64,000 bases of DNA, taken from the sequence record PQ604604; one strand, 5' to 3'. This stretch comes from Escherichia phage ECP_WGS_SA1. Of this stretch, positions 1 to 59,774 are shown one piece after another (positions within the stretch are counted from its first letter, which is position 1; the number at the start of each line of letters is the position of its first letter). Under the pieces are notes generated by a model. The model did not search any database. It saw only the letters and a list, made by a program, of their open reading frames with translations, and was not told the DNA's origin. A program made the position numbers and the translations under genes.

Positions 1-360
1 ATTTTGAATTAATTTAAATTAATTTTTTTCTACATCCTCATACTTATACTAAACTTATATTTATACGTATTATCCGTAAGATATAAGTAAAAACAAAGAC
101 TTGCGGCAATACGGATGATACGTCATGATACGCTTCAACCAGCCAGCAGCGGCTAAGTCATTGATTTGCATAACAAGCGGCGAAAGGGATGGATTTCTTT
201 TATGCGTATCAAACAGTACACCACGCACCACGGTCCGATATTCATTCAGCACTATGATTTATGTACGTTTACAGCCAATTTGAACATCAATCTGCACTTG
301 AATATAATGTTCATTCATTGTATAATTCACACTATTAATTTGCACTATGGGATTTGCACT

Positions 361-834
361 ATGAGTCAAGATTATGTAGCAATGCCTGAAGACTTTGAAG
401 ACCCGCGATTTGCAGAGCATAATCAGGCATTATTCGATGAGTTCATTGACCTTGTTATTCAGGGCCATGACATGCGCGCAGCTTTTGCACTAGTATTTGG
501 CATGGAGGTTGCGACCGATAACTACACTGGCCAGCGAATCCTGTGCACGCAGCGCAACCCGTACTACAAGATGCGCTACAAAAAGCGTATGGAAGAGATG
601 CCATTGAAGGAATTGTGGAGTGTAAAGAGTTCCATCCACAATTTAGTGAAGCTTGTGCGTGATCCAGAAGTCGCGGCTTCAGCCAAGCTTAATGCCATTC
701 GTGAACTGAATATCATCTACGGCATCACGATGATTGATGAAAATGGCAATAGTAAAATGGGCCGTTCCATGGACGATTTCTACAAGGATTTTGGAGAGGC
801 AGCCAAAGAGGGTGAGCAATTCTCCCGCCACTAG
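361..834 (+). CDS. Hypothetical protein, 157 aa; start chosen at the ATG embedded in the second repeat copy
   Basis: In-frame part of ORF 166..834; the region upstream of 361 is repeat-rich and looks non-coding. Confidence 0.5.
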   Translation: MSQDYVAMPEDFEDPRFAEHNQALFDEFIDLVIQGHDMRAAFALVFGMEVATDNYTGQRILCTQRNPYYKMRYKKRMEEMPLKELWSVKSSIHNLVKLVRDPEVAASAKLNAIRELNIIYGITMIDENGNSKMGRSMDDFYKDFGEAAKEGEQFSRH

Positions 835-3452: not shown

Positions 3453-3725
3453 CAAAACTTTCCCTTCGTTCCGAACTAAAACGAGAAATATGCCGACCCT
3501 TCGCCCGAAAATAGTACGCATACGAAATTACCGACATCTAGAATAATCCGCGCCGATATTATCCTACACGCAATCATTAGCCTTCGAATCATTATGCTTC
3601 ATATTATTATGCTTCGAATCATTCGCTTTCGAATTGTAACGCTGAAAACTGTAACGGCGATTGATTATTGCGTTCGTGTGGTTTTTATGGCATGGGTCTT
3701 TTGGTGCGTTTTGGTACTTGATGAA

Positions 3726-3836
3726 ATTTGCAGTACACTAATCAAAATACGACACATTTGGTCCACTAACTTTTCAAAGAAAAAGTCCTAGACAGTACCG
3801 TACTATTTTGTGCCCACAGTAAATTTGCAGTACACT
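3726..3836 (+). repeat. Two copies of ATTTGCAGTACACT (3726-3739, 3823-3836), a variant of the ATTTGCACTAT family
   Basis: Read directly. Confidence 0.7.
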
Positions 3837-3905
3837 CCTGCGCGGCAGACAAAATAAAGGGCCGCCACAGCGACCCACGATTCACGGTTAAATCAGCAAC
3901 ACCCA

Positions 3906-14078: not shown

Positions 14079-14930
14079 ATGGCTTTTAAGGCTTCGAAAA
14101 AACGTGAACGCCGCTCACCCGATAGAATCGGGCGCGGAAGTCCGATAATCCCATCAAACGCTATTGCGATGGCCTACCGTCGTGAGATGAAAGGTCTTTG
14201 CTATGCGATGATTGATGACTATCAGGCAGGCATTTCAGAATGGCTTGACAAGAAGCAGGTGCAGAAGTTTTTTGCGCAAGACTCTGCTGATTCGACATTC
14301 CAGACCCTTATGAAACGGCTGCAACTGAAATGGGCAAAGGCGTTTGCACGTGTTGGGTCGAAGATTGCCGCTGATTTTATCAAATCGGTCGAAAAGGGTG
14401 CCACTTCTGCTACATTCGCAAGCCTTAAGTCCGCAGGCATAGAAGCGCCAAAGGCCACATATAACAAATTCGTTGAGAACACTCTTAGAACAAGCGAGAA
14501 GTTTAACACGACTCTAGTGACTAAGGTCGGCGAGGATATTCACAACAGAGTGTACGAAGCAGTCATGCTTTCGCTGACTTCTCCCGACCCAGCCCAGCAA
14601 GGCACGTCAGGCATTCAGGCGGCATTGCGAAACGTAAAACACTTCTCTGCAAAGAGAGTCGACTTGATCGCTAAAGACCAGACAAGCAAATTGTATTGCG
14701 TTCTAAGCGATGAAAGGATGCGCCAGAATGGAGTCGAAGAATTTGAGTGGGCGCACTCAGGAGCAGGAAAGGAGCCGCGAATATCTCATGAACATGTCGA
14801 CGGAATGAGATTCAAACTTGATGACAAGCGACTATGGGAAGTGGGCGGAGAATTGAAGTTCAAAAAGGGTGACATCGGTCCTCCTGGATGGGCGATACAC
14901 TGCAAGTGCAGAAAAATACCAATCATTTGA
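14079..14930 (+). CDS. Head morphogenesis protein, Mu F-like
   Basis: Immediately follows portal; C-terminal region EFEWAHSGAG...HEHVDGMRF typical of MuF-like minor head proteins. Confidence 0.6.
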   Translation: MAFKASKKRERRSPDRIGRGSPIIPSNAIAMAYRREMKGLCYAMIDDYQAGISEWLDKKQVQKFFAQDSADSTFQTLMKRLQLKWAKAFARVGSKIAADFIKSVEKGATSATFASLKSAGIEAPKATYNKFVENTLRTSEKFNTTLVTKVGEDIHNRVYEAVMLSLTSPDPAQQGTSGIQAALRNVKHFSAKRVDLIAKDQTSKLYCVLSDERMRQNGVEEFEWAHSGAGKEPRISHEHVDGMRFKLDDKRLWEVGGELKFKKGDIGPPGWAIHCKCRKIPII

Positions 14931-14938
14931 GGTCATTA

Positions 14939-15858
14939 TGACGATACCAATCAGCACGTTTCCTCTATCTGGACAAACGCCAGTATTGCCTGCTGTATAT
15001 GCTAACGGCTTGGCGATTGTTTCAGAATTCACATCCGATAAAAACCTGATTGTTCCATTGAGTCCGCCATTGGCGTCTGGATACAATTCAGTTGGCCAAT
15101 TCTTTATGATCGGTAATGATGGCGATTCTACCAGCAAACCGAATCTGACACTTTCAGTTCCAAAAATGAACATAACAGACGTGCAGACTGGTTTAACTGC
15201 ATCTACAATCACCATCGCTTTTGGAGAAGCAGTGATTATAGGCATGGAGTCTGGAGGGTCCAAGAATGCTGTCGCCGTTAAGGTAGTCAAATCCAGCGGC
15301 AACCAATACACGCTACCAGCGGCAACGGCTTCTGTTCTCGGCGGCGTAAAAATAGGAAGTGGCATAAGCGTTGCAGGTGACGGTACAATTAGCGTTACTC
15401 AATACTCGTTACCGATTGCATCAGCATCAGTATTGGGAGGCGTAAAGGTAGGCACGACACTATCAATTGATGGTTCTGGAGTCCTTAATGCTGCAGCAAG
15501 CACTGTCCAAAACGCAAGCAATAGCGTAAGCAATCCTCCGACAACTTTGGTGAATCTGGCGACCTTAAACCTGCCTGCAGGGAAATGGCTTGTGACAGCA
15601 AGTCAGTTGACTGTCGCGACAGCAGGAGTTCAAGCGAATACCGGAATTACAGTCAAACTGTCAACAAGCAATTCAGATATTACGGATGATGCATTTACGA
15701 TGTCAGCTGGCATTCGTGCTGCAGGTCGTTTCGGCGGCAATATTCCAACAAAGATAATTACTCTTGCCGCGCCTGGCAACGTGTATCTAAACTATCAATG
15801 CACAGACGCATTGACATCTACCGTTTACGGACAGATCACCGCAATTAAGTTGAACTAA
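14939..15858 (+). CDS. Fibre-repeat protein (two copies of ASVLGGVK[IV]G)
   Basis: Tandem fibre-type motif read in translation; G/S/T-rich. Confidence 0.5.
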
Positions 15859-15868
15859 AGAGGAAGTT

Positions 15869-16006
15869 ATGCAAAAGATTATTCAGTCACGTTACGTTAA
15901 AGTGCGAAATATTAATTGCAACTCTTTGCTTTCTTGGAAATGGGCTGTTTACGACTCGATGATGATTGGCGTTTTAGTTGCTGGAGTGCTTTTTAATATT
16001 CACTGA
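15869..16006 (+). CDS. Possible small hydrophobic peptide, 45 aa
   Basis: Short ORF with AGGAAG RBS; below the length cut-off of the supplied ORF track. Confidence 0.25.
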   Translation: MQKIIQSRYVKVRNINCNSLLSWKWAVYDSMMIGVLVAGVLFNIH

Positions 16007-16050
16007 ATCGCCTGGCAATGGATTGCCGCAGGATTTTACGCGTATAATGA

Positions 16051-16313
16051 CGTATCATCCGTATCAAGTAAGTAGTTGTTTTCAAAAGAATCTTACGGAT
16101 GATACGGATGATACGCGTTGCCGCGATACTTTATAGGAATTCAAAAAAAATAAAATAAAATTATATATCTAATTTAATTTTATTTTTTTATAAACTCTTA
16201 TATATGAAAAGTATCCGTATCATCCGTATCATCCGTAGCACACCAGTGATAGCGCGGCTTATACACCGATACGGATAAAAATACGCCTCATTTTATCCGT
16301 ATCATCCGTATCA
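16051..16313. repeat. Iteron-like clusters of the 9-bp unit ATCCGTATC in both orientations (16051-16066, 16094-16115 reverse, 16211-16237, 16294-16313) flanking an AT-rich imperfect palindrome (about 16143-16189)
   Basis: Read directly; related copies at 71-132. Confidence 0.8.
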
Positions 16314-16422
16314 CACTAATTAAGGCGCGGCTATATCGGTTGTTATACATATTCAAACCATAATTATTGTTTGCCTAAGTTTTTTTCATTAGATATAATA
16401 CACAATACTTATTTGAGGGTGG

Positions 16423-17841
16423 ATGCGAATGCAAACGGCACGCGAAATTGACAAAAATGGATTCTTGACGATTGTGGGTTGTCCCATTTCGTCATTTGGC
16501 ATTTTTGATTATTCTGCAGGTCAGGTTGGACTTGATGGTGATCCGAATCGCATCGTAAAAGTTTATCGCCCAGAGTCAGCGGTGAAAGACCCCGAAGCGA
16601 TAGATTCATTCAAAAATATCCCTTTCATCGACAATCACGAAATGCTTTCTGGATTCGAAGGTGATGAGGATAACACAGCACCCGAAGAGTATGGCGTTGA
16701 TGGCGTTCTAACTGGCAATGTTTATTATGACAAGCCATGGATGCGCGGCGACCTTAAAGTTTTTAGCCGTCGTCTGAAGAAGGCCATCGATTCTGGAAAG
16801 GTTGACTTGTCTTTGGGCTATGACTGTGAATTCATCATACAGTCTGGAGAGTTTGACGGGCAGCCGTATGAAGTGGTACAGACAACTCTTCGCGGCAACC
16901 ACATTGCTCTCGTGGACGTTGGTCGAGTACCAGGTGCACGGGTGCTGGATGGTCGTTGCTTTGACCATCTTTGTTTGACGACTGTAACACCATCCAACGA
17001 GGATTTAGACATGCCAAAACCGTTAAAAGGTAAAGCGCGTGATAATGCTGTTGAACAGCTGAAATCACTGATCCCTGCGCTCGAACAATTTCTGAATGAA
17101 GAGAGCACCGAAGCTGCTCATCAGGACGAAGTTGAAGTGAAAGCAGAAGAGAAGGATTCAACCGAAGAACGTGAAGAAGTGATGGTTGATCCAGAAGTTA
17201 AAGCAGAAGCGGAAGAAACTCCAGAAGGTGAAGAGAAGTTTGAAGTTGAAACTGAATCTCACGCTGGCGGCGAGCTTCCGCAACTGATCAGCCAAATCGA
17301 AGCACTTATTGCAAAACTGAAAGGTGGCGCGGTAGGTGATGAAGAAGAAGTTGAAGCCGAAGTCAAAGACGAAGAAGTTGAAGTCAAGGCTGAAGACGTA
17401 TCACCTTGCGACAAAGCTGAAGATGTGGTTAGCGGCCTGCAAAACAGCAACGTAAAGGGGGCTTCGGTCGAAAAAGATGACAAACCGACAAAAGCGGCGA
17501 AAGCGTCGCCAGGTCCAGCAAAAGGGGAACACTCAATGGCATCTGATTCAGCAGTTGCTGCTTTCTACGCTGATTCTGCTCGTAAGAATAGCCTCTACCA
17601 GCGCCTGTCTAAAGTTGTTGGTGCCTTTGATCATGCAACTATGGACTCCAAGTCCGTAGCGAAATATGGCGCTAAAAAGTTAGGCTTGAAGTGCGTTGAT
17701 GGTGCTGAGTTTGACGTTGTGGATAACTATCTGCGCGGCGTTGAACACGGTCAAAAACAGCGTGTAGTCGCAAAACAAAAGGCCGCTGCGGATTCTGCAG
17801 CAACTGACGAAGCATTTGAAGCTTGGTTGAAAGGGGAATAA
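16423..17841 (+). CDS. Putative prohead protease/scaffolding protein with an acidic E-rich middle region
   Basis: Position before the capsid gene; low-complexity E/K/A-rich segment. Confidence 0.45.
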   Translation: MRMQTAREIDKNGFLTIVGCPISSFGIFDYSAGQVGLDGDPNRIVKVYRPESAVKDPEAIDSFKNIPFIDNHEMLSGFEGDEDNTAPEEYGVDGVLTGNVYYDKPWMRGDLKVFSRRLKKAIDSGKVDLSLGYDCEFIIQSGEFDGQPYEVVQTTLRGNHIALVDVGRVPGARVLDGRCFDHLCLTTVTPSNEDLDMPKPLKGKARDNAVEQLKSLIPALEQFLNEESTEAAHQDEVEVKAEEKDSTEEREEVMVDPEVKAEAEETPEGEEKFEVETESHAGGELPQLISQIEALIAKLKGGAVGDEEEVEAEVKDEEVEVKAEDVSPCDKAEDVVSGLQNSNVKGASVEKDDKPTKAAKASPGPAKGEHSMASDSAVAAFYADSARKNSLYQRLSKVVGAFDHATMDSKSVAKYGAKKLGLKCVDGAEFDVVDNYLRGVEHGQKQRVVAKQKAAADSAATDEAFEAWLKGE

Positions 17842-17843
17842 AC

Positions 17844-18461
17844 ATGACTTTCCAAACTAGTGTAGGCCGTCAATATACAACTGGCTTTCCTGGCGACATC
17901 GTTCGCGACGGCCCACAGCGTGGGAAGCCAGGCCGAATTGCCAACGCTAACGAAGGCGCAAACGTAAACGCCATCAGCCGTGTGTTCGGTTTTAAGACTG
18001 ACGTATCCTTAATGGGTACTGGTCAAACCAAAACTTTGGGCGCGCAGGACTTTGAAGTTGAGCTGGGCGGCACTAACTACTACGGCATCCTCGGCAATAG
18101 CAAGCGTTACGCGCTGTATGGCAACTCTACTGGTCCTTTGGGTGCCAGCATGGTTCTGCCTCAATATAGCGAAGGCGAGTTCTATGATATGTGCACGGGC
18201 CTCGTAGTTGAAGTATTCAACCCAAGCACCAGTCCGCAGACGCTTAACTATGGCGACCTGCTTGCTTATGTACCTAAAGGCATTTCCAGCGGTAACAACC
18301 CGAACAACTTGCCTATTGGTGCAATTATCGCCTATACTGGCTCATTGCCAACTGGCATGGTTGCCATCCCAGGCGGTATTGTGATTGACCCGACGACTAT
18401 TGCCCTTTCCGGCCCAAGCGTCCAGTCTTCCACTTATACCATTGTACAATTGACTCGTTAA
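17844..18461 (+). CDS. Hypothetical head protein, 205 aa
   Basis: ORF with AAAGGGG RBS; position in head module. Confidence 0.4.
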   Translation: MTFQTSVGRQYTTGFPGDIVRDGPQRGKPGRIANANEGANVNAISRVFGFKTDVSLMGTGQTKTLGAQDFEVELGGTNYYGILGNSKRYALYGNSTGPLGASMVLPQYSEGEFYDMCTGLVVEVFNPSTSPQTLNYGDLLAYVPKGISSGNNPNNLPIGAIIAYTGSLPTGMVAIPGGIVIDPTTIALSGPSVQSSTYTIVQLTR

Positions 18462-53042: not shown

Positions 53043-53888
53043 TTATTCCGCTTGATCACCGTCTTCGGCATCTTCGTTGGATTCAACATCGACAAACTCG
53101 ATGTGACCCATCTCTTCCAGCTTGCTCAGGTAGGAGCGAACGGAAGCGCCAAACAGTTGATCTTTAACTTTTTCGCCCAGCTCATCGATAGACTGCGCCA
53201 CGCCAACTTCGCCTTCTTTGATCGCCGCCAGAACGCGTCCACGGGTGGAATGCTCTTGCGGCTGGCTCAGGCCATTGCCAGTGTAGATGAAGTGGGTTGC
53301 TTTTGCACGACGCTGACCGTTCGCCTTTTTAGCAGCCTTACGTTCTGCGATGGCTTTGCGACGTTCTTCAGCTTCTTTCTTACGCTGTTCTTTCTGCTTT
53401 TCTGCAGCTTCTTTAGCCGCAATCTTAGCAGCTTCACGCTCTGCCTTGCGTTTCGCTTTAGCTTCTTCTTTAGCCTTCTCTTTTTCGGCCTTCGCTGCAG
53501 CACGGGCCTGATCACGCTCTGCTTTCTTAGCAGCAGCTTGTTCAGCTTTCAGGCGCTTGGCTTCTTCTTTAGCCTTTGCCTTTTCGATTTCTTTTGCTGC
53601 TTTAGCGGCTTCACGCTCTGCTTTCTTAGCAGCGGCCTTTTCTGCACGCTCTTTAGCTTTCTTAGCTGCTTCTTCAGCACGCTTCTGAGCCTTCTCATCA
53701 GCAGCCTGCTTGCGTTTCAGCGCAGCTTCTTCACGCTTGGCTTGTTTTTCCTGCTCACGCTTCTGGCGTTTTTCTTCGGCTTCTTTCTTTTTAGCCAGAC
53801 GTTTTTCTTCAGCCACGCGACGACGTTCTGCTGCAGCTGCTTGTTTTTCTTCTTTAGATAATACTTTGATTGCTTCGGCCATGTTCAC
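53043..53888 (-). CDS. Highly charged K/E/A-rich protein (predicted long single alpha-helix) with a small C-terminal domain
   Basis: About 200 aa of alternating K/R and E with A; periodic AAGAAGC repeats in the DNA. Confidence 0.55.
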   Translation of the reverse strand: MNMAEAIKVLSKEEKQAAAAERRRVAEEKRLAKKKEAEEKRQKREQEKQAKREEAALKRKQAADEKAQKRAEEAAKKAKERAEKAAAKKAEREAAKAAKEIEKAKAKEEAKRLKAEQAAAKKAERDQARAAAKAEKEKAKEEAKAKRKAEREAAKIAAKEAAEKQKEQRKKEAEERRKAIAERKAAKKANGQRRAKATHFIYTGNGLSQPQEHSTRGRVLAAIKEGEVGVAQSIDELGEKVKDQLFGASVRSYLSKLEEMGHIEFVDVESNEDAEDGDQAE

Positions 53889-55712: not shown

Positions 55713-56795
55713 ATGGCTAGTTTAAGAGAAGAAGCAAAAATAATCGAAGAGTTTTTGACGGAACTCCAAAGAGGCATTCCAGAAGATGAACGCGTCATGA
55801 CCGTGTTTGCGCCTGAAGCAACGGTGCAGACCGACGAGCGCGGCAAAAAGATTAACAGCAGCTTCTGGCCTAAGCCTTGGAAGCTTGGCAAGCCGCTGAT
55901 GCAACATCAGAACGGTTACGCCTGCATAAGTTCAATGCGTAAGTCTCCCAACCCAAAGACAGGCGAGATGCGATACTGGCGCACGGAATCGGCCTTTGGT
56001 CATGGCATGGCGATGATGGTCGACGACATCGGTCACGGTAAAGGGTCTAAAGGCGATTTAGATTTGGAGTTCTTTTTCGAGCGTCTGAAGCCAACCGTCA
56101 TCATTGAGACTTCGCCGAACAACCACCAGCTGTGGTATTTCTTTAAAGAACCAATTGACCATCTTATTCAGTTCAAAGCATTCCTTGGGTCTTTCGTAAA
56201 CATGGTACTCAAGAAGGGCGGCGACAATACGATTAAAGACGTGACGCGCGTGGGCCGTGTTCCTGGGTGCATCAATAACAAGCGTGTGACTCACGACGGC
56301 CCTTATAAATATGTCGATGAGAACGGCGACCCGTTCCGCTGCCGACTTGTCCATGCAGACTATTCTTTGCGCTACACAATCGAAGAGATTTGCCAAGCCT
56401 TCGGTTTCCACGTCGTTATGCCGCAAAAGCGTGAAATTCAAATCGACGTTGACGAATACAAATATGACGCTGTTTGGTATAAGATAGCCCAGCAAATCCT
56501 TGCGCGCAATAAGATGGGCGAAGGGTCCGACGGCGATGTTGTTGAAAATATGTCAGGTAAATGCCGCATCATCTGTCCTTGGGGTGAAGAGCACACCAAC
56601 GGCGACCCATACGGCGCTTATTTTCGCGGCCCCATCCCTGGCGCTGAACATGAATTCGTTTTCGGTTGCGCTCACGACTGTCACCGGAAAGGGGAAGGCA
56701 AGAAAGGATGGACCGCTTTTGTTGAAGCAGTAGTCATGCCTTATATTGAGAATCAACTTGATATGATAAATCGTCGCGCAGGTGGCATAAAATAG
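55713..56795 (+). CDS. Archaeo-eukaryotic-type primase-polymerase (PrimPol-like) with a C-terminal Cys/His cluster
   Basis: hhhDhD-type motif MMVDDIGH; sxH-type motif SPNNH; Cys/His cluster near the C-terminus. Confidence 0.5.
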   Translation: MASLREEAKIIEEFLTELQRGIPEDERVMTVFAPEATVQTDERGKKINSSFWPKPWKLGKPLMQHQNGYACISSMRKSPNPKTGEMRYWRTESAFGHGMAMMVDDIGHGKGSKGDLDLEFFFERLKPTVIIETSPNNHQLWYFFKEPIDHLIQFKAFLGSFVNMVLKKGGDNTIKDVTRVGRVPGCINNKRVTHDGPYKYVDENGDPFRCRLVHADYSLRYTIEEICQAFGFHVVMPQKREIQIDVDEYKYDAVWYKIAQQILARNKMGEGSDGDVVENMSGKCRIICPWGEEHTNGDPYGAYFRGPIPGAEHEFVFGCAHDCHRKGEGKKGWTAFVEAVVMPYIENQLDMINRRAGGIK

Positions 56796-58103: not shown

Positions 58104-59774
58104 ATGTCAATTGAACATGACAATCTTCCAGAGGATACAGGTGATGAATTTGGTGCAATCTTTGACGAAATTCAAGACGCTGGTGTTTCAGAAGAAATGC
58201 AAGCGGCAGAGCAGCAAGGCACCAGAGCTAAAATCAGCCTACAGCACAAGGCTGTTGAGAAAGATGCAGAGCGCATGGAATGCTACGGTGAAGAAGACTT
58301 GGTTGAAAGAGCACGTTTGCTCGCCTCACTTCAGGTAATCAAGTTCCCTCATTATAAACCGACGAAAGATGATTTTGTTCTTCAGGCGGACCGGACGAGT
58401 GACATGAACCGTTATGCGGTTTTCGACGCGTTGTTTGATAAGGGAAGCGGCGTTGTTCCATTCCCTCACAAAGATACTTTTCGTGGGCGCTTAGTCGACC
58501 ATCGCGGCGAAACATTCACCGACCGGACGTTGGAAGTCACAGAGATAGTTGCCGCTGTCGACGCAGCAGGACTGTCCAACCCAAATTCACGTCAGGTCGC
58601 TCAATCCTATAAGGAATGGGCCATGCGTTATCAGCGCGATGACCTGATGGACTTCTTCTACAAGAAGCTGCCTGAATGGGACGGTACTGCGCGCATTGAG
58701 AAATACCTTATCGAGCTATTCCGACCGTTCGATACAGAGTTAAACCGACAAATCGGTGTGTATTTTTGGCTATCGCTCTATAACCGCCTGACCAACCCTG
58801 GCTGTCAAGCGCCAATCTCCATTGCGCTCATCGGCGGCCAGAACGCAGGGAAGAGTTATTTTAGTAAGCTGCTTTGCGAAGCTATTATGAACGACCGCCA
58901 CGCAACACCGATTCCGTTGAACTTGGCCGCGCAGAACTTCAACCCGTTCTTGCGAGCTATTACGGGTCGCTCAATTATCGCGAACGTTGGCGAGATGACA
59001 GGCTTTAAAAAGGCCGACATCGAAAACATGAAAGCATTCCTGACTAAGACGGAAGATGACCTGGACTTCAAATTTGAAGACACGCAGGTTAAACCACGCC
59101 AGTGGATTGCGATCATGGACGGCAACGAATACGCAGGCATGCAGCGTGACGATACGGGCAACCGTCGTGTGTATCCTATCTTTGTTGGCCAACTCGCCGA
59201 CAAGGACGGGCAACCGAACTGGTCGAAAGACTTCCAAGCTGACCTTTCCACTTTGAAAGAAGATGTTTGGCAGTTGATGGCTGAGTGCGCTGCGTGGATG
59301 GAGAAGCACGGCGAAGCAGGTTACAATGCCTTTGTTGGTGAAACATCTCGTATGCTTACTGAGTTCAGTAAGAACGAAATGGAACGCGCTCGCGGCGTTA
59401 TCCGTGATGAGATGGTCGACAACGACCTTGTTGAAGTCATCATTACCGCGCCTTATGACCGACATCACAGCGGACGCTGGCACATCACCAGTGGTGCAAT
59501 CGCTATGGGATTCAGAGCTAAGTGCGGCAAGTCGCCTTTCTCACGTACCCTTGCGCCGCACATGTCGAAGCTTGGATTTGAGCCTGCAACCTATCGCAAC
59601 CAGCGTGGCTACTTTACGCCGCTGATTAAGAATGAAGCAGGGGAATACATTTCTGACTTGATGACTATCTTAGCGTATCTTATCCGCGACGAGTCTGACC
59701 CTGAAGATATTGAATTCTTGAAGAAGGTTATTGAACGCAAACGTTCTTTAGGAAGAGATAAGGATGAATTCTGA
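58104..59774 (+). CDS. P-loop NTPase, D5/VirE-like primase-helicase
   Basis: Walker A IALIGGQNAGKSYF in the central region; position after the primase. Confidence 0.5.
   Translation: MSIEHDNLPEDTGDEFGAIFDEIQDAGVSEEMQAAEQQGTRAKISLQHKAVEKDAERMECYGEEDLVERARLLASLQVIKFPHYKPTKDDFVLQADRTSDMNRYAVFDALFDKGSGVVPFPHKDTFRGRLVDHRGETFTDRTLEVTEIVAAVDAAGLSNPNSRQVAQSYKEWAMRYQRDDLMDFFYKKLPEWDGTARIEKYLIELFRPFDTELNRQIGVYFWLSLYNRLTNPGCQAPISIALIGGQNAGKSYFSKLLCEAIMNDRHATPIPLNLAAQNFNPFLRAITGRSIIANVGEMTGFKKADIENMKAFLTKTEDDLDFKFEDTQVKPRQWIAIMDGNEYAGMQRDDTGNRRVYPIFVGQLADKDGQPNWSKDFQADLSTLKEDVWQLMAECAAWMEKHGEAGYNAFVGETSRMLTEFSKNEMERARGVIRDEMVDNDLVEVIITAPYDRHHSGRWHITSGAIAMGFRAKCGKSPFSRTLAPHMSKLGFEPATYRNQRGYFTPLIKNEAGEYISDLMTILAYLIRDESDPEDIEFLKKVIERKRSLGRDKDEF

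Follow-up and report, generated by a model that had tools for sequence, protein, structure and literature searches.

The 64,000-nucleotide stretch analyzed here, referred to as the window, belongs to Escherichia phage ECP_WGS_SA1 (sequence record PQ604604) and contains a non-coding element at positions 16007-16428 that is embedded among head genes and consists of 9-bp repeats arranged around an AT-rich core. On balance, its sequence and architecture favor the view that it is an origin-type element bound by the phage initiator, Rep, and represents a second copy of the phage origin. Each genome carries the element as a pair of paralogues. The twin lies beside the small terminase gene, terS, at the end of the packaged DNA, and the two-copy layout is common to six phage lineages, each with its own repeat unit.

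Two copies of a repeat element in one genome

The repeats set the element apart from the rest of the window. The 9-bp unit ATCCGTATC has seven exact matches on both strands of the window, all of them inside 16057-16312, where dinucleotide-preserving shuffles yield 0.28 matches on average and two at most. With up to two mismatches allowed, the unit occurs 26 times per kb in the element and 2.1 times per kb elsewhere in the window, and is thus not frequent outside the element. The units are arranged in tandem with a period of 9 bp and form clusters in both orientations around the core (Table 1), as an earlier note on this DNA had described. That note was right about the clustering and about the presence of a non-coding gap, but it counted four clusters, where five (A-E) are found, and gave the gap 560 bp; its size is 422 bp, and a 45-amino-acid open reading frame (ORF) precedes it.

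The core and its surroundings are organized symmetrically. Clusters B and C constitute a perfect 22-nt inverted repeat that flanks the core, and the core contains a palindrome with 23-nt arms (16144-16166 and 16167-16189) that are 91% complementary. As single-stranded DNA, the segment 16094-16237 could form a 144-nt hairpin (free energy -39.5 kcal/mol, z = -9.6). GC-rich motifs of the GCCGC type to the left of the core and of the GCGGC type to the right occur in both copies of the element and in all lineages read, and three CGCGGCW copies flank the AT core of the internal copy with inverted polarity. The heptamer CGCGGCW is found 59 times in the window against 17.8 expected, a 3.3-fold enrichment along the genome, mostly on the coding strand and thus following gene orientation. 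Because of this genome-wide enrichment, we do not treat it as specific to the element; it may be a product of codon bias or a functional site that serves, for instance, in priming.

The window is a Wifcevirus genome that is approximately 98.5% identical to phage WFH (vB_EcoM_WFH; genome from Korf et al. 2019). The stretch 14800-17900 is matched over at least 80% of its length by 28 Wifcevirus genomes, which belong to E. coli and Shigella myophages of 67-72 kb; identity is 94.7-98.6% among the matches listed, of which vB_EcoM_WFH is the closest. Within 16007-16428, the 28 Wifcevirus records annotate no gene and identity is 93.7-99.1%, and five aligned Wifceviruses show almost no variation in the gap.

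A local search of the WFH genome with the internal gap returns a 46-nt match of 95.7% identity (WFH 67511-67556), located 27 bp before the right-hand copy of the direct terminal repeat (DTR). At the opposite end of the genome, the repeat units at window positions 63-133 match the right-hand clusters of the internal element. The earlier note had recognized related copies at 71-132; these prove to be part of the right half of a complete twin. When read across the concatemer junction, the twin presents plus-strand repeats, minus-strand repeats, the AT-rich core, plus-strand repeats and minus-strand repeats in this order, and the left end of the genome falls in the middle of its AT core, where ...aattaactcc meets attttgaattaattt....

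The position of this end is precise. The WFH record contains an exact 3,701-bp DTR, and the window and the WFH record open at the same nucleotide, which makes window position 1 the left physical end of the packaged genome. The record of phage Mansfield, which was sequenced from a TruSeq library with termini called by PhageTerm, opens at the same nucleotide as WFH, and its DTR ends at the same junction (...GGGTCTTT followed by TGGTGCG, between window positions 3701 and 3702). The coincidence of the WFH and Mansfield ends indicates that these independently determined ends are precise. The records give one pair of termini, namely the twin copy and the 3701/3702 junction.

The first gene inside the DTR is terS. 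Its product, encoded at 361-834, matches the TerS protein of phage E217 (PDB 7UXE; E = 1.7e-32), and Mansfield annotates TerS at the same coordinates. In RefSeq, WFH gp001 (202-834) is a "hypothetical protein"; this gene is the small terminase gene, and its likely start is 361. In Wifcevirus and in Pantoea phage Kyle, the twin has stayed with terS, and 5.5-7.3 kb of small genes separate it from rep. The internal copy is 15.3 kb from terS and approximately 42 kb from rep.

Several further observations concern the two copies and the genome ends. At positions 16150-16162, in the left palindrome arm of the internal copy, four positions differ from the four other aligned Wifceviruses (AAAAAAATAAAATAAAA here, AATAAATTAATTTAAAA there), and the others resemble more closely the AT-rich sequence just inside the left genome end. 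Just upstream of the terS-side copy lies a strongly strand-asymmetric tract of 200-300 bp (WFH 67150-67350) that is G/T-rich on the terS-sense strand; it is present in Wifcevirus, Pbunavirus, Serratia phage MyoSmar and a metagenomic lineage and absent from the internal copy, and it could be a mark that singles out the terS-side copy for packaging. The right DTR boundary (window 3690-3840) has a conserved context of its own that recurs in Kyle and MyoSmar. TGGTGCG starts directly after the boundary, where Kyle has GACCGCG, and CAGTACACT(AA) follows approximately 30-40 nt outside the repeat. The two exact copies of CAGTACACT at 3731-3739 and 3828-3836 are the only ones in the 64-kb window. This motif is constant between genera, in contrast to the 9-bp repeats. 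It was looked for 3.7 kb downstream of the internal copy, where it would mimic the right DTR boundary, and is absent there.

Conservation of the layout and the candidate initiator

The element is not confined to Wifcevirus. In Kyle, Serratia phages MyoSmar and MTx, Pseudomonas phage E217 (Pbunavirus) and Burkholderia phage BcepF1, the protease gene, whose product is 44-58% identical to that of the window, is likewise preceded by a gap of approximately 410-515 bp; small ORFs take the place of the 45-amino-acid ORF in these relatives. The region is found in every relative examined. Phages that are more remote, with 40-47 kb and a related protease, do not have the gap. The layout is preserved, whereas the repeat unit changes: ATCCGTATC in Wifcevirus, GGTTATT or GGAATAACC in Kyle, TACTTTTCG in MyoSmar and MTx, AAATTACC in E217, TAACTAA(GG) in BcepF1 and TAGTTGCGG in a metagenomic lineage. 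These lineage-specific words cluster at exactly two places per genome, one in the internal gap and one immediately before terS, and in BcepF1 all 16 genomic occurrences of TAACTAA fall in the two loci. Such retention of a layout with changing sites is expected from a specific binding protein that co-evolves with its sites. An unbiased scan of five genomes for repeat arrays detected no other non-coding array.

The terS-side copy retains its place as well. In the lineages with mapped DTR termini (Wifcevirus, Kyle and MyoSmar) it precedes terS by 350-390 bp, and it is likewise just upstream of terS in E217 and BcepF1. In Kyle, which has an exact DTR of 3,603 bp, the AT core of the terS-side copy contains the first base of this repeat, and in MyoSmar the PhageTerm-defined DTR boundary falls in the terS-side element, 30-60 bp from the core. 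Pbunaviruses are reported to be circularly permuted headful packagers, and both copies are kept in them despite this mode of packaging. The terS-side copy is placed directly behind rep in E217, MyoSmar, BcepF1 and at least four metagenomic lineages.

What protein could read the repeats? The replication genes of the phage encode a VapE-type helicase of superfamily 3 (SF3), a RepB-type primase, a Dda-like helicase and a DnaE-type polymerase. The VapE-type helicase, the candidate initiator Rep, matches the SaPI1 Rep1-DNA complex (PDB 7PDS; E = 4e-11), where SaPI denotes a staphylococcal pathogenicity island, with identity to Rep1 limited to the ATPase core. An AlphaFold2 model of Rep residues 400-556, computed from a 55-sequence alignment, has a winged-helix topology with a predicted local distance difference test score of 92.4. 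An alignment of five Rep orthologues displays a conserved ATPase core and a very variable C-terminus, and the winged helix averages 20% pairwise identity, compared with 57% for the ATPase core. The corresponding values for TerS are 36% in the N-terminal region and 44% in the core, so that TerS is barely more variable at its N-terminus.

The resemblance to SaPI origins extends to the DNA. By the published definition, a SaPI origin comprises 6-12 short iterons that immediately follow rep and surround an AT-rich centre, with two or more on either side in opposite orientations; they are recognized by a winged helix in the C-terminal domain of Rep, which is self-loading (Qiao et al., PMC9371898). 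Judged from sequence and the model, the phage protein resembles SaPI1 Rep1, SaPIbov1 Rep and PriRep5 as an SF3/VapE-type helicase-initiator with a C-terminal winged helix, and a separate primase is present in both systems. Lineage-specific short repeats run in opposite directions on either side of an AT-rich centre in both, here as clusters B and C around the 8%-GC core. By sequence, the terS-side copy fits the SaPI definition point for point, including a position directly after rep in most relatives, and the internal copy fits it in all but adjacency to rep. The phage system differs from SaPIs in that it belongs to a 68-kb virulent myophage rather than a satellite, uses 9-bp units instead of units of 5-6 nt and has two copies per genome, of which the one studied here lies far from rep inside the head genes and the rep-side one coincides with the end of the packaged genome. 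The GC-rich CGCGGC motifs are also an addition of the phage.

From these likenesses we infer both the identity of the repeat binder and the effect of its binding. The repeats, with a core of CGTATC and 9-bp phasing, would be iterons that are read by the C-terminal winged helix of the self-loading VapE-type helicase. Rep bound on both sides in opposite orientations would melt the 74-bp AT-rich palindromic core, after which the RepB-type primase and the DnaE-type polymerase would begin synthesis. The twin beside terS would be the primary origin copy. The internal copy would either fire as a second origin or hold Rep tightly and stall forks, and thereby switch replication to concatemer production.

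Table 1. Features of the internal element, its twin and the associated genes (window positions unless another record is named)
Feature	Coordinates	Strand	Details
Whole non-coding element (internal copy)	16007-16428	.	422 bp; repeat clusters, AT core, GC-rich motifs, promoter
Repeat cluster A	16038-16066	+	three units at 9-10 bp spacing: CGCGTATAA TGACGTATC ATCCGTATC; CGTAT at 16041, 16051, 16060
Repeat cluster B	16092-16118	-	three inverted units directly left of core
GC-rich motif CGCGGCA (top strand GCCGCG), left of core	16119-16125	-	
AT-rich core, candidate DNA-unwinding element	16137-16210	.	74 bp, 8% GC vs 44% for window
Repeat cluster C	16213-16239	+	three tandem units directly right of core, pointing away
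GC-rich motif CGCGGCT	16253-16259	+	
Repeat cluster D	16266-16285	-	two inverted units; ATACG at 16269 and 16281
Repeat cluster E	16295-16312	+	two exact tandem units
GC-rich motif CGCGGCT	16326-16332	+	
Near-consensus sigma-70 promoter	16371-16399	+	TTGCCT, 17-nt spacer, TATAAT; 10/12 matches; for protease/scaffold/major-capsid operon
Small ORF, left bound of element	15869-16006	+	45 amino acids, hydrophobic; ribosome-binding site; annotated in relatives
Prohead maturation protease gene, right bound of element	16429-17841	+	DUF2213, PHROG 3778
Twin copy, right half	1-135	.	AT-rich 1-60 (15% GC); units 63-80 (+), 108-133 (-)
Twin copy, left half	WFH 67400-67582		outside window, other end of genome
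Small terminase gene terS	361-834	+	first gene inside DTR, 360 bp from terminus
RepB-type primase gene	55713-56795	+	Pfam PF16793, E = 1.9e-36
VapE-type SF3 helicase, candidate initiator (Rep)	58104-59774	+	Pfam PF05272, E = 1.6e-28
Hypervariable C-terminal winged helix of Rep	~59409-59618		

The internal element lies in a conserved morphogenetic context, with the local gene order portal, MuF, head fibre, small ORF, element, protease/scaffold and major capsid protein. The earlier note called the flanking genes fibre-repeat and scaffold-like; the upstream one is the head fibre gene, and the downstream one encodes a prohead maturation protease. The ORF listing places the protease start at ATG 16423, and the GAGGG ribosome-binding site at 16415-16419 fits ATG 16429, the RefSeq start. 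The small ORF to the left matches nothing in Pfam or PHROG. In Kyle, MyoSmar and MTx, the sequence TTGCnn, a 17-nt spacer and TATAAT precede the protease start codon by approximately 30-50 nt.

Other observations concern the relatives. Besides the two loci, the repeat-array scan gave one further strong signal, which is the low-complexity coding sequence of a Lys/Glu/Ala-rich protein and does not represent iterons. The 279-amino-acid protein encoded at 53043-53882 on the minus strand comprises approximately 190 Lys/Glu/Ala-rich residues of low complexity followed by a small globular C-terminal domain; its gene lies beside the Dda-like helicase gene in five lineages, and the protein resembles a histone-H1-like DNA-binding protein. 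The BcepF1 terS gene is unannotated and lies on the minus strand of NC_009015 (20046-20513) under the small plus-strand ORFs gp058-060, and E217 gp077 (MF490240, 58488-59108) has been called over the non-coding terS-side element. A Logan contig of 72,501 bp (SRR26188688_3650), which carries both element copies and Rep, TerS and protease sequences that are 75%, 70% and 70% identical to those of the window, is probably, by this comparison, an undescribed relative that represents a new species or genus near Wifcevirus. Its mixed GACGTATC and ATCCGTATC units define a conserved iteron core, CGTATC(A). The contig was also used for a fine-scale check of co-variation between the repeats and TerS or Rep. 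Because both of its copies use the Wifcevirus CGTATC core, this comparison does not discriminate between the two proteins.

Origin, packaging site or control region

The earlier note suggested that the region is either an origin of replication or an array to which a phage regulator binds. The origin part of this proposal is the one best supported by the comparative evidence, namely the SaPI-type architecture, the Rep homologue with its winged helix, the change of unit with retention of layout and the parallel with phage SPP1 described below; a packaging-related role stays in play through the twin. A cluster of DnaA boxes (TTWTNCACA), as in origins that rely on DnaA (oriC or lambda-like use of host factors), is lacking: the boxes number four in the window against 7.6 expected, and none lies in 16007-16428 or 1-200. 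Several points weigh against a Rep-bound origin. The internal copy is remote from rep, and the twin stays with terS rather than with rep in Wifcevirus and Kyle. A physical DNA end lies in or beside the AT core of the twin, which points to terminase action, and the internal core of Kyle is nearly identical to its terS-side copy around the cut position. The repeat units are longer than those of SaPIs. The cumulative GC skew of the WFH genome has no inflection at 16.1 kb; the cumulative GC and AT skews of WFH follow gene orientation only and are therefore uninformative about an origin. Finally, for Pbunavirus JG024, Garbe et al. placed a predicted sigma-70 promoter within the AT core and described AT-rich boxes of unclear function (PMC3008698).

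Could the small terminase, rather than Rep, read the repeats? At a pac-like recognition site, ring-shaped TerS would bind the repeats and wrap the DNA with one contact per helical turn, and the large terminase would cut the AT core. The terS-proximal copy would start packaging and fix the left DTR end, and the internal copy would be a second site for TerS loading or synapsis or a TerS-titrating sink in the head-gene cluster. The DNA end in the twin core, at the same nucleotide in WFH and Mansfield and similarly placed in Kyle and, less exactly, MyoSmar, keeps this explanation alive together with the constant location of the twin just upstream of terS, even where rep is 5-7 kb away. Tandem repeats also flank the cut site in SPP1 pacL-pacC-pacR and in the P1 pac site with its hexamer repeats, and the twin shares with them short motifs on both sides of a DNA end and adjacency to a small terminase gene. 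However, the SPP1 and P1 sites are single-copy sites read by the small terminase, whereas here a second full copy lies 16 kb away, not in or next to terS, with no end known there. To our knowledge, no phage has a conserved second pac site, the T4 gene 16/19 synapsis proposal aside. A functional internal site would give truncated genomes. The terminus evidence consists of the two DTR boundaries given in the records, and the terminus sequence (TTAACTCC joined to ATTTTGAA at the cut) is conserved in a relative of 70-75% identity and absent from the internal copy. Moreover, the N-terminal region of TerS shows no hypervariability to match the complete change of the repeats from lineage to lineage, and E217 TerS is reported to have no appreciable binding in vitro to the DNA used (PMC9611059). 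A terminase recognition site is the main rival explanation, but we consider it unlikely, both as a whole and in the roles that it would assign to TerS and to the two copies. The coincidence of the left DTR end with an origin-like core is also the basis of a combined reading, which we advance tentatively and with low confidence: PB1-like phages would use one element as replication origin and as packaging start, and the internal copy would be this origin minus the sequence specific to the terminus. The unwinding core of the Rep-bound origin would then be where the left end of the 3.6-3.7-kb DTR is made, which could proceed through origin-primed rightward synthesis that duplicates the repeat or through terminase cutting of the melted core. 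A separate conserved site, TGGTGCG...CAGTACACTAA, would define the right end, and the internal copy would be kept as a second firing site or as a Rep-bound fork barrier that switches replication to concatemers.

The element might instead control transcription, either because the repeats bind a phage regulator or because the AT core acts as a promoter or UP-like element, and thus time the terS and protease/scaffold/major-capsid operons. A near-consensus sigma-70 promoter lies 60-250 bp downstream of each copy and reads into terS or the protease gene, consensus promoters before late genes would need control, and the sigma-70 prediction of Garbe et al. lies inside the JG024 core (PMC3008698). The geometry argues otherwise. 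The repeats are clear of the -35 and -10 hexamers, with the closest cluster ending 59 bp upstream of the -35, the dyad symmetry is centred on the AT core 160-230 bp from the promoter, and the best promoter within the core has at most 9 of 12 matches. In addition, terS and the head genes are just two among many late units, and the repeats are missing from the other late promoter regions, those that precede the large terminase and portal genes. A primary role in transcription is therefore improbable in our judgment. Even less credit, close to none, can be given to a structured RNA gene or leader or to a non-functional remnant of a duplication. The region folds strongly as a single strand, but the hairpin is a by-product of the inverted repeats and is kept neither in Kyle nor in the twin copy, and an Rfam scan of the element returned only sub-threshold chance matches to plant and animal miRNA hairpins (best 34 bits against a threshold of 80). 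The concerted evolution of the two copies across six lineages argues against decay.

Relation to known systems and implications

The interpretation as a second origin copy has a close parallel in gene arrangement in phage SPP1. SPP1 carries two origins, oriL and oriR, with the same repeats and an AT-rich unwinding element, and the late morphogenesis cluster is broken up by an insertion made of oriR and genes 8-10 (PMC6316719). The SPP1 gene order places oriR between gene 7 (MuF-like) and the scaffold gene 11, the same place as that of the internal element. The initiator bound to oriR has been proposed to stall forks and trigger concatemeric replication (PMC6316719). Both systems thus have two loci with the same repeats and an AT-rich element, one next to or in the replication genes and the other a non-coding island in the head-gene cluster between MuF-like and scaffold genes. 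The resemblance is an analogy, not homology. The SPP1 initiator, G38P, works with a DnaB-type helicase and a loader (G39P, G40P) that are unrelated to the replication genes found here. Furthermore, oriL lies inside the initiator gene, and SPP1 packages by the headful mechanism from a separate pac site, with no DNA end in an origin.

Satellite phage P4 and IncQ plasmids provide further points of comparison. The P4 ori and crr are two separated loci with the same short repeats in both orientations, which are bound by the C-terminal winged helix of the alpha protein, a primase-helicase. The present system resembles P4 as a two-locus iteron system that would be read by the winged helix of a replicative helicase, but crr is 4.5 kb from ori and required in cis, the alpha protein has its own primase domain, and P4 has no link between these loci and the genome termini. 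The IncQ (RSF1010) oriV likewise combines a RepB-family primase with iterons, an AT-rich region and GC-rich elements on opposite strands. However, an IncQ origin also involves a RepC-like iteron protein and the ssiA/ssiB hairpins, which were not identified here, and the GC-rich motifs of the phage are just 6-7 nt long and belong to a heptamer that is enriched throughout the genome.

In the literature searched, we found no paper that describes, for this group of phages, an element in two copies, an origin or a pac site; earlier work described AT-rich boxes and a putative promoter only (PMC3008698). Iteron origins of the SaPI type and duplicated origins of the SPP1 type are already known as kinds. 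New are their combination in virulent PB1-like myophages, the conservation of a second copy among the head genes and the connection with the genome terminus.

Therapy and synthetic rebooting draw on PB1-like phages (Pbunavirus, Wifcevirus and relatives) more than on most others. In the literature searched on these phages, the origin appears only as a guess from GC skew, no pac site is given and statements on the genome ends conflict. The present work points to two defined cis elements in each genome and to a candidate initiator domain, and it gives both DTR boundaries in their exact sequence context. All of these are open to direct testing in existing rebooting systems, and they indicate regions that should not be disrupted when these genomes are engineered. 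If the coupling of origin and terminus is true, it would constitute an undescribed link between the initiation of replication and the formation of terminal repeats, and would bear on the poorly understood process by which long direct terminal repeats are made.

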